Virus record (IMG/VR): IMGVR_UViG_3300045988_099631
Span: 48,492 to 112,491 of that record
Direction: 5' to 3' (one strand)
Source: a virus
DNA length: 64,000 nt
In this document: positions 25,937 through 27,277 of the stretch, in pieces
Position numbering within the stretch: the first letter of the stretch is position 1
Layout: each line of letters opens with the position of its first letter
Translations under genes and position numbers: made by a program
Notes under the pieces: generated by a model
Told to the model about the DNA's origin: nothing
What the model saw: the letters and a program-made list of their open reading frames with translations, nothing else
The model's database searches: none

Positions 25937-27277
25937 TTATTTTAAAAAAGCGTATAGGATTTCAGCGTGGATATTCTCCCGCCTAACCTTTGCGTGAATT
26001 GAACTAGGCTGTATTTCCACTATTTCAGCATGATATGTCATGCCTGCGTCCATCTTCGGTGCGTAGACAGCCGCCCAATCTCCAGAAATATGACCAACTG
26101 GGAATCCACAGGAGTTTTTCACTAATATTGCATTTTTGTCGTATTTGTTTTCGGGTTCTCGTTCAAGAATAAGCGAGTCACCGACAGTGAGATTTTTCAA
26201 GGTGTCTTTACTGGCGCAGAATTTCATTCCTACAATACTCACAGTTTCCACAACCAGTTTCGCCTTTTCATTTCCTTCCCATCCGGCTATTTGTCCAGAG
26301 TATTTAGATTGGATTGTATAGTACATATCGCTGTCCAGAGGTAGCACCGTTAGCTCCGGGTGATTTTTTTGCAATAACATAACCTTTTTGCGGCTTTCGT
26401 TTCCCCAATAGCCTTTTACTTCTACAATAACGCTATTCGGCAAGAAAAAATCCGGTGTATAGCATAGTCCTTCCCCAAGATCAAACATTTCTCGTTCATA
26501 TTCGTATGGAATATGTTTTGACCTCAAGAGCCTAGCAATATTAGCTTCCCACGAACTGCGCAGCGCTTGATCGAGGTCTATCCGAAAGCCTATGTTATAT
26601 TTCTGAGATTTATAGTCATCATAGCTTGTAGTTACAATCCGGATTTTACCGCGTTCATCTATGACCTCGATGCACGGAACCCCATTCCTGTGTAGAATTT
26701 CTTCTACAGGCTTGTTGTGATTACTATGCTGCACAAACCATCGTGCGAAGCAATCATCCTCTTTTCGGAGAGTATATGACCAATCAGGTGTATTTGGAAC
26801 CTGAGCAATTTCTACATTTTCTCCGCAGTATTTCTTACAAATAGCAGTCACCGTCTGTACATAGTTGCTTGGAAAACATATGTAGTTATATGTTTTCGTC
26901 AAATCACAGATATAAGGTATTGAATCTATACTTTCCCAAGTGCGGTCCCCCCATAATTTTCTTTTTACGGATACAGAAAATTCATCATGTTCGTGCAGGT
27001 AGTTACGGAAAATGTCTCTATACTCGGCAAAAAACCAATCATCGTTTTCGTTGCGACGACGTATATCGACATACCGAATAATCGATATTCCGTCTTCGCT
27101 TCGTATGACATTTAGAAACCTAGCGTTATTTCTATGGAGCAAATCAAGATATCTTGCAAGCAATTCGTTTGGAACTTGGTCTGTATGTTCCCATATAAAA
27201 TACTGCTCAGTTTTTACACCATATTCAGATTCAATGCACTGCGCCAGCATTTCTCCAACGTGCGTTTCCTTTTCCAT
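25937..27277 (-). CDS. three-part protein: unknown N-domain + PD-(D/E)xK nuclease-like core + C-terminal HIRAN domain
   Basis: ORF 25937..27295 (TTG) trimmed to ATG 27277 after a CGGAGGAA SD. Contains YTPDFFLPNSVIVEVKGYW (D..EVK) and VGMKF..GDSLILEREPENKYDKNAILV..VGHIS (HIRAN). Visibly AT-rich compared with its flanks. Confidence 0.8.
   Translation of the reverse strand: MEKETHVGEMLAQCIESEYGVKTEQYFIWEHTDQVPNELLARYLDLLHRNNARFLNVIRSEDGISIIRYVDIRRRNENDDWFFAEYRDIFRNYLHEHDEFSVSVKRKLWGDRTWESIDSIPYICDLTKTYNYICFPSNYVQTVTAICKKYCGENVEIAQVPNTPDWSYTLRKEDDCFARWFVQHSNHNKPVEEILHRNGVPCIEVIDERGKIRIVTTSYDDYKSQKYNIGFRIDLDQALRSSWEANIARLLRSKHIPYEYEREMFDLGEGLCYTPDFFLPNSVIVEVKGYWGNESRKKVMLLQKNHPELTVLPLDSDMYYTIQSKYSGQIAGWEGNEKAKLVVETVSIVGMKFCASKDTLKNLTVGDSLILEREPENKYDKNAILVKNSCGFPVGHISGDWAAVYAPKMDAGMTYHAEIVEIQPSSIHAKVRRENIHAEILYAFLK

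Follow-up and report, generated by a model that had tools for sequence, protein, structure and literature searches.

An antisense endonuclease I–HIRAN gene in a variable slot of temperate gut-Clostridia phages, an accessory cargo with a likely role in anti-phage defence or superinfection exclusion

The gene described here lies in a 64,000-nucleotide stretch of viral DNA (IMG/VR record IMGVR_UViG_3300045988_099631, positions 48,492 to 112,491), which is called the window below and in whose numbering its features are given. It occupies 25937-27277 on the minus strand, stop codon included, and encodes a protein of 446 amino acids (aa), read as an open reading frame (ORF) from ATG, in which an endonuclease I-type nuclease core is joined to a HIRAN domain. 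A GGAGG ribosome-binding site (RBS; 27285-27289, minus strand) lies 7 nt 5' of the ATG, and an alternative TTG at 27295, which overlaps the GGAGG, is an unlikely start codon. The gene is the sole minus-strand gene within a plus-strand run of early genes. Its GC content is 0.406, against 0.501 in the remaining window, which places it within the lowest 1% of 1341-bp segments, and the minimum of the GC profile plotted over the 64 kb lies inside it. A first-pass annotation made from the DNA alone had proposed this ORF, its AT-richness and its orientation against its neighbours; all three hold, and every peptide quoted there occurs in the translation. The identical 446-aa protein is found on 12 public contigs, where it is labelled 'hypothetical protein'.

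The middle part of the protein, from about aa 229 to about aa 335 (26273-26593, minus strand), is a nuclease core of the T7 endonuclease I type, matched by Pfam PF05367 (E 3e-14) and by PDB entry 1m0d (E 7.5e-13). At aa 236-311 the Pfam family, Phage_endo_I, scores 53.3 bits with a cut-off of 29.1. In the alignment to the T7 enzyme (1m0d), SSWE, YTPDF and VEVKG stand opposite SGLE, YTPDF and VETKG, and residues E244, D276, E286 and K288 fall on the T7 active-site residues E20, D55, E65 and K67. The four residues are invariant in 15 full-length homologues, down to 35% identity, and in a distant subfamily; the conservation of catalytic residues, which had been named earlier as a check on the nuclease, extends across the family. 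The generic PD-(D/E)xK, restriction-endonuclease-like label of the first-pass annotation can be narrowed on this evidence: the nuclease stands, and the family is that of T7 endonuclease I (PF05367, 1m0d). Past a PEL motif the sequence diverges from the T7 enzyme, and the HIRAN domain begins about 25 residues later; as far as the alignment tells, this protein lacks the C-terminal helices of T7 endonuclease I or has other elements in their place.

The C-terminal part, aa 336-446 together with the stop codon (25937-26272, minus strand), is a HIRAN domain (PF08797, E 1.4e-15), for which Pfam gives 57.3 bits at aa 346-428 with a cut-off of 24.7. Foldseek assigns a probability of 1.0 to the HIRAN domains of Lp_0118 (3k2y; template-modelling score, TM, about 0.6) and of HLTF (4s0n), and the two methods together bear out the HIRAN assignment made earlier. 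The segments VGMKF and NKYDKNAI/VGH align with VGLRYY and NPYDKNAI/VGH of HLTF. Among the homologues F353, N377, D380 and N382 are invariant, while position 379 is Y or F. The HIRAN domain of HLTF binds 3'-OH DNA ends at forks. Residues K352/F353 and N377-x-Y379-D380-x-N382 align with R71/Y72 and N91/Y93/D94/N96 of HLTF, and these HLTF motifs contain the residues that stack on, and hydrogen-bond with, the 3'-terminal nucleotide. Prokaryotic HIRAN domains have been described as uncharacterised (PMC11090510).

The N-terminal part, aa 1-228 (26594-27277, minus strand), is predicted by AlphaFold2 (pLDDT 86.9) to begin with a single helix and to continue with two tandem ferredoxin-like units of beta-alpha-beta-beta-alpha-beta topology. 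No specific match to aa 1-230 was found in Pfam, PHROGs, PADLOC or a PDB sequence search. When the full model and the N-terminal domain alone were compared by Foldseek with the PDB, and with BFVD, only matches of TM 0.2-0.3 were returned, namely tandem ACT domains (the AHAS regulatory subunit and SerB2), BMC-T shell proteins, designed ferredoxin folds and, at low probability, LAGLIDADG proteins. A profile of the domain run against 1.84 billion representative proteins gave 7 matches, all of them to its own family or to fragments of it. These roughly 230 residues had defied assignment in the first reading, and they resisted sequence, profile and Foldseek comparison here as well; judged by these searches, the domain is a lineage-specific orphan.

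A search of 5.8 billion protein clusters yielded 61 relatives, 16 of them with the full architecture and about 30 more that match in the last ~225 residues only. In a comparison of the full-length group with the distant subfamily by hhalign, the core alone was aligned (probability 100%, E 9e-70) and the N-termini were not. The alternative N-termini include two topoisomerase-type C4 zinc ribbons (P0041, L095) and an added coiled coil (P0007), besides others, and the transmembrane helix at the N-terminus of a 345-aa relative (P0025) suggests action at the membrane for some members, as for the nuclease SNIPE discussed below. The build of a constant core, here of ~225 aa, with interchangeable N-termini is that of sensor-effector defence proteins. 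As hosts, uncultured Clostridia, Oscillospiraceae and Eubacteriales are recorded, with some Bacilli. The family is common in human-gut metagenomes and has hundreds of member sequences, whose public names are 'hypothetical protein', 'HIRAN domain-containing protein' and 'endonuclease I'. Among 50,697 GenBank phage records none covers at least 80% of the protein; the matches are to the endonuclease I part alone and rank highest in T7-like phages. A plasmid collection gave two weak partial matches, to the nuclease part only.

Several phage genes flank the gene. On its 3' side lies a gene for an Ltp-type superinfection-exclusion lipoprotein (24999-25766, plus strand; Pfam PF07553, E 7.7e-31; phrog_4980), which the first reading had already recognised. 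The Ltp gene and the nuclease gene converge on a GC-rich hairpin that is terminator-like on both strands (25774-25801). On the 5' side, and divergent from the nuclease gene, a 47-aa ribbon-helix-helix (RHH) protein (27456-27599, plus strand) is followed by a Rha-type antirepressor (27771-28547, plus strand). The previously proposed RHH and Rha pair is real, with Rha supported by Pfam (E 1.6e-21) and phrog_373 (E 5e-44) and RHH by phrog_37719 (E 8e-14) while staying below the Pfam cut-offs. A sigma-A-type promoter-like site with a TG extension, TTGACA-17-TATCAT (27404-27432, plus strand; consensus match only), lies 5' of the RHH-antirepressor operon. Three ATCGTG repeats overlap this site in its extended form TTGACA-17-TGtTATCAT (27397-27432) and make a candidate RHH operator; the succession of RHH and antirepressor resembles the layout of P22 immI. 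A perfect TTGACA-17-TATAAT on the opposite strand, in the RHH-Rha spacer (27697-27725), points antisense through RHH towards the nuclease gene and is possibly sar-like. The type I toxin-antitoxin-like module that had been placed beside Ltp finds no support: its likely basis is a 49-aa ORF (24707-24856, minus strand) that ends in a hydrophobic helix and KKK (…MATWTEIFSFSTVLIAFAGLIVQICKKK) and resembles a type I toxin, for which no Pfam match was found, and an Rfam scan of the window gave three tRNAs only.

The full-length homologues occupy one fixed position in phage contigs of about 60-112 kb, where they stand alone on the opposite strand. They diverge from an antirepressor, which may be Rha, P22_AR_N or ORF6N in type; in most loci an RHH-like ORF of 45-57 aa stands before it, and an integrase follows a few kb beyond it. 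For a sample unbiased with respect to the gene itself, 79 viral loci were fetched via the neighbouring Rha protein; in 17 the DUF3560 protein is 66-88% identical, and these come from the phage family of the window. The frame of DUF3560, DUF6927, p87, a variable slot, RHH and antirepressor is constant in most of these 17 sister loci, with the endonuclease I–HIRAN gene present in 6 and absent from 11. Where present, the gene is antisense and comes with or without Ltp. Another 6 of the 17 loci carry a zinc-ribbon protein and a 291-aa, seemingly membrane-associated protein, 3 carry an antisense protein of 438-500 aa that diverges from the same RHH, one has Ltp alone, and one has nothing in the slot.

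The antisense protein of the third kind is PD-lambda-1 (PADLOC E 1e-150), encoded in L021 (4145-5647, minus strand), L022 and L041 (5260-6576, minus strand), with DUF4041 and T5orf172 domains in L021 and L041. Experimental characterisation has meanwhile given PD-lambda-1 the name SNIPE and shown it to be a nuclease, which cuts the DNA of phages while it is being injected (PMC13190303). The alternative pair, seen in L018 (4748-5434 and 5455-6330, both plus strand) and also in L013, L020, L023-L025 and L032, consists of a 228-aa protein with an N-terminal zinc ribbon and a GC-poor (0.41) 291-aa protein with a hydrophobic-looking N-terminus and a weak Cu_amine_oxidN1 match. Neither member has a PADLOC match; together the two are a candidate module for exclusion or defence.

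The components of the slot assort freely. The presence of Ltp does not depend on that of the nuclease gene, and RHH is kept in loci that lack the gene (L013, L020), with three RHH types exchanged independently of the cargo; RHH is part of the constant frame around the slot and no dedicated partner of the nuclease. The identities of the gene and its flanks are likewise decoupled, since L016 combines a gene identity of 98.7% with 66% for DUF3560, and L001 a gene identity of 76% with 98.5% for DUF3560. In the window the GC content of the gene lies 5-18 points under that of its flanks, as it does in 12 of 13 homologue loci for which it was measured, with L095 as the exception; the alternative cargo is also GC-poor, at about 0.41. 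Polymorphic presence, identity decoupled from the flanks and low GC together indicate exchangeable cargo and no core phage function. The moron-type position suspected at first sight is thereby upheld, by the variable slot, a precise empty site and the presence of SNIPE as an alternate in the same orientation. In the survey of neighbourhoods, which had been recommended with a view to replication and repair modules, no full-length homologue was found in such a module, and all lie in the one variable antisense slot.

Comparison with the sister loci defines a cassette of 1439 bp (25905-27343) that is absent from empty sites and leaves the hairpin outside its borders. In L013 the window positions 25770-25904 correspond to 2731-2864 and the positions 27344-28000 to 2855-3511, and the same junction occurs in L018, L019, L020 and L032, which makes five loci with L013. 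The empty-site sequence contains ...AAGCATTCCGGGACAAATCACATATTTCG..., and GGACAAAT, at 25897 and 27346, flanks the insert on both sides. The left copy, GGACAAAT-N11-GTAG... (25897-25931, plus strand), runs antisense into the gene and ends 5 nt from its stop codon, while the right, resident copy (27346-27381, plus strand) lies 5' of the RHH promoter-like site. The full motif reads cgGGACAAAT-N11-12-GTAGAAnnATAgGTGTAA, and the boundary form can also be written GGGACAAAT-N11-GTAGAA. In the form GGACAAAT-N9-14-GTAG it has 8 copies in the window, all on the plus strand (17668, 18356, 19471, 20486, 24931, 25897, 27346 and 30864), against 0.03 expected. Most copies lie some 20-50 nt 5' of an early-gene RBS, and every sister phage (L001-L041) has the motif too, with its orientation unchanged.

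A transposon target-site duplication, considered as the origin of the 8-10 bp end repeat, was rejected on account of the recurrence of the motif (8 copies against 0.03) and the absence of terminal inverted repeats. As the repeats are copies of a recurrent motif, recombination between copies explains both the insertion and its loop-out deletion. The left-copy arrangement is also present at the 76% identical allele (L001) and at SNIPE (L021), which share one type of 3' flank, and the allele of L028 has a different junction. The motif itself may be a promoter for another factor or a stoperator-like site.

The distant relatives, which share the core only, are likewise found in the surroundings of mobile elements or islands. 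In a Lysinibacillus locus the neighbours of the core are a SIR2/ThsA-like protein (E 9e-32) and three tyrosine recombinases in tandem, with a faint PLD-like match as well. In this island of Lysinibacillus xylanilyticus (L101), which is bounded by recombinases, the 329-aa endonuclease I–HIRAN relative diverges from the 255-aa SIR2/ThsA-like protein (10001-10990, plus strand, and 8791-9558, minus strand, respectively), and the two may form a two-gene system. Another distant core adjoins three tyrosine recombinases and a DinG-type helicase, and a further one a Mob_Pre relaxase, 6 kb from PDC-M11A. Others lie beside serine recombinases, directly 3' of glmS, or beside a truncated ChlI/ComM-like ORF. 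In contrast, the HIRAN-less endonuclease I relative of L098, whose nuclease part scores below Pfam reporting, is co-oriented with its neighbours in a plus-strand run, three genes 3' of an SSB-like ORF.

Taken in its context, the gene is an accessory, moron-type cargo of a family of temperate gut-Clostridia phages of about 70-112 kb, and its product a likely single-protein nuclease for anti-phage defence or superinfection exclusion. This reading draws on the intact endonuclease I active site, the HIRAN pocket, the cargo status of the gene and its positional equivalence with SNIPE and Ltp. The company of the gene and its kin is of the type expected for defence genes in general, with a slot common to SNIPE and Ltp and, in a small sample of loci, relatives near SIR2/ThsA-like proteins, near PDC-M11A and in recombinase-bounded islands.

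In the mechanism proposed for such a nuclease, the endonuclease I core would form a dimer like that of T7 gp3 and cut branched DNA, and the two C-terminal HIRAN domains of the dimer would capture free 3'-OH ends, directing cleavage to places where ends adjoin branches. The targets could be incoming linear phage genomes, D-loops, intermediates of rolling-circle (sigma) or recombination-dependent replication, and reversed forks. The tandem ferredoxin-like N-terminal domain may serve as a regulatory, sensor or assembly module that spares host DNA. The antisense position would probably allow expression from the prophage and a shut-off once early transcription and replication of the phage start. 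More tentatively, endonuclease I–HIRAN proteins could be seen as a new class of single-gene immunity, in which a free 3'-OH is the non-self signal that licenses a junction-type nuclease and the exchangeable N-terminal modules tune its time and place of action; this wider idea is put forward as a possibility for which we would claim less than even chances.

Several points weigh against a defence function. The inference from genomic location is circumstantial, and the association with defence genes comes from a small number of loci. Only positions 12-90 of the 149 in the PF05367 profile are matched, and the junction specificity may differ from that of the T7 enzyme. In the AlphaFold2 monomer model, which cannot show a swapped dimer, the endonuclease I part fits the chain of the domain-swapped crystal structure poorly (TM 0.32). 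No convincing sigma-A match for a promoter of the nuclease gene was found in the 178-bp spacer. A structure-specific nuclease would threaten host forks and the prophage's own replication. The early region also contains anti-defence-like genes (weak ArdC-N; AcrVA2-like in L003), so that the slot could hold cargo for attack as well as for defence.

A true relative of endonuclease I could also be the phage's own debranching enzyme, an equivalent of T7 gene 3 that resolves branched intermediates before packaging and whose HIRAN domain finds 3' ends at D-loops. The core has matches in 1066 GenBank phage records, and in the T7-like phages that rank highest the matched genes carry the annotation endonuclease I. 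The PHROG annotations read 'endonuclease' and 'Holliday junction resolvase', and a non-exhaustive scan of about 30 window ORFs revealed no second resolvase. A resolvase of the phage's own is nevertheless hard to reconcile with a gene that is missing from 11 of the 17 related phages, is sometimes replaced by SNIPE or unrelated cargo, runs antisense to every lytic operon and is GC-poor, with a phylogeny decoupled from its flanks. Moreover, the same core occurs in non-phage islands, and the place expected of a resolvase, near the SSB-like ORF, is taken by the HIRAN-less relative of L098. We consider a debranching role unlikely.

The anti-defence-like genes mentioned above bear on a second alternative, an offensive nuclease directed against host DNA, competing mobile elements or intermediates of host defence. 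Such a role would suit an early region with DUF3560, DUF6927 and a weak ArdC-N match, and with AcrVA2-like (L003) and LPD25 (L008, L010) genes in sister phages. Transcription of the nuclease gene opposes that operon, however, and the gene has the slot and orientation of SNIPE and Ltp as a slot-mate, both of which protect against superinfection, while distant homologues lie in chromosomal islands beside SIR2/ThsA-like and PDC-M11 genes. An attack function seems improbable in view of this.

The presence/absence polymorphism, the precise empty site and the short junction repeats raise the question of whether the nuclease gene is a selfish, free-standing cassette of the homing type that spreads into empty sites at co-infection, and the cassette is indeed 98-99.6% identical in places where the flanking genes are only 66-78% identical. 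Against this, the junction repeat is a motif recurring throughout the phage, in 8 oriented copies against 0.03 expected, and no homing site; endonuclease I is structure-specific and not sequence-specific; divergent alleles use other junctions (L028); and unrelated cargo (SNIPE, Ltp) occupies the same slot. To our knowledge, HIRAN domains do not occur in homing enzymes, and homing is a very unlikely explanation. The toxin of an addiction pair with RHH as its antitoxin, suggested by the frequency of RHH among antitoxins, a weak CopG_antitoxin match of the RHH in L021 and the potential of a nuclease as a toxin, is scarcely credible and was rejected, since the slot contents show no co-inheritance, RHH persisting without the nuclease (L013, L020) and its three types assorting independently, and since the two genes are divergent and not co-transcribed, with RHH and antirepressor arranged as in arc-ant.

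The probable defence nuclease resembles several characterised proteins in part. With T7 endonuclease I (gene 3; PF05367; 1m0d, 2pfj) it has in common about 80 residues of homology, the four active-site residues and the motifs SxxE, YTPDF and VExKG; unlike in T7, the core sits between a 228-aa orphan domain and HIRAN, and its gene is antisense cargo of a temperate phage and not part of a replication operon. The HIRAN fold and the motifs NxYDxNAI and VGH are common to HLTF (4s0n, 4xzf) and the stand-alone Lp_0118 (3k2y), whereas HIRAN is fused to a SNF2 motor in HLTF and to a nuclease here. SNIPE/PD-lambda-1 (DUF4041 + GIY-YIG) is likewise a single-gene nuclease and has the same slot, antisense orientation and 3' flank type, but it shows no kinship in sequence or fold and belongs to another nuclease superfamily; its membrane anchor has no counterpart in the cargo protein, in which neither Pfam nor PADLOC detects the SNIPE domains (DUF4041, T5orf172/GIY-YIG).

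Shedu combines a PD-(D/E)xK core with diverse N-terminal sensor domains and senses DNA ends (bioRxiv 10.1101/2023.08.10.552793, 10.1101/2023.08.10.552762). The design of one PD-(D/E)xK-type core with exchangeable N-termini is shared by Shedu (SduA) and the cargo protein; the nuclease family differs, and the proposed end-binding module is the C-terminal HIRAN. No PADLOC or Pfam match to SduA (DUF4263) was obtained for the cargo protein. In PDC-M03, a PADLOC candidate made of a HipA-like kinase and HIRAN, component PDC-M03B is matched by aa 346-429 (E 8e-9), and the kinase is absent from the window and the homologue loci. No nuclease annotation is given for PDC-M03B in PMC13245101 and PMC11706625. 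The first-pass annotation had not recognised a named defence system in this layout, and PADLOC 2.0 (2023) agrees with it, as it has no model for the architecture and only the HIRAN part touches PDC-M03B. Going by its sequence matches, the cargo protein belongs to the endonuclease I and HIRAN families and stands outside every named defence system tested. Iyer, Babu and Aravind (in Cell Cycle, 2006) are said to have listed bacterial fusions of HIRAN with nucleases of the REase fold, and the two-domain core is probably no new architecture. A search of the available literature found no link of endonuclease I with HIRAN or with phage defence, nor any mention of the orphan N-terminal domain or the cargo slot.

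Elsewhere in the window, the plus-strand early arm contains anti-defence or leading-region-type genes, namely DUF3560, DUF6927 and a weak ArdC-N match (18876-19214, 22192-24067); among the sister phages, L003 has an AcrVA2-like gene (11255-12313), and L008 and L010 have LPD25. A PAPS-reductase-like protein (8111-8980, minus strand; phrog_424, E 3e-39) is encoded in a leftward arm of small genes. Just 3' of Rha lies a TnpB/IS605 OrfB-type gene (28877-29980, plus strand) with Cas12f1-like TNB, OrfB_IS605 and helix-turn-helix (HTH) domains; a related TnpB copy is found elsewhere in L013 (132-488), indicating that the element moves within the phage family. A tyrosine integrase (33882-34970) is followed by the tRNAs Gly-tcc (35285), Gln-ttg (37917) and Met-cat (38975), a MazF/PemK-like toxin (39409-39954) and a class-V aminotransferase (39951-41051), the whole block spanning 33882-41051. 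On sister contigs of 71-112 kb the integrase, the PemK toxin and the aminotransferase keep this order at short distances and are accompanied by an HU-like gene, which assigns the set to the phage. The late-gene block (42342-59703, minus strand) encodes a 1675-aa tape-measure-like protein (PhageMin_Tail), proteins of 1249 and 987 aa with DUF6242 and Listeria-Bacteroides repeats, and a 505-aa endolysin with CHAP, NAGPA and SH3 domains. As to a sigma factor, the scan of some 30 ORFs gave only a weak Sigma70_r4_2-like HTH in a 240-aa ORF.

The occurrence of PD-lambda-1/SNIPE in gut Clostridia phages extends a system derived from E. coli to prophages of Firmicutes. The slot in which it alternates with endonuclease I–HIRAN is a hotspot whose frame is fixed and whose boundaries bear a recurrent motif. 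With at least five alternative contents, it could be mined for further cargo, such as the pair of zinc-ribbon and membrane proteins. Recent work on Shedu, on SNIPE, on Gabija and on systems that forked DNA activates bears on the much-studied question of how defence nucleases distinguish phage DNA from that of the host when neither sequence nor modification marks it. For this question the gene offers a compact, testable case, in which a structure-specific nuclease, a predicted reader of 3' ends and an exchangeable N-terminal module are combined in a hotspot shared with a proven defence nuclease. If free 3'-OH ends do serve these proteins as the non-self signal in defence, this would be the first function assigned to a prokaryotic HIRAN domain and would provide a bacterial counterpart to the recognition of forks and ends by HLTF.

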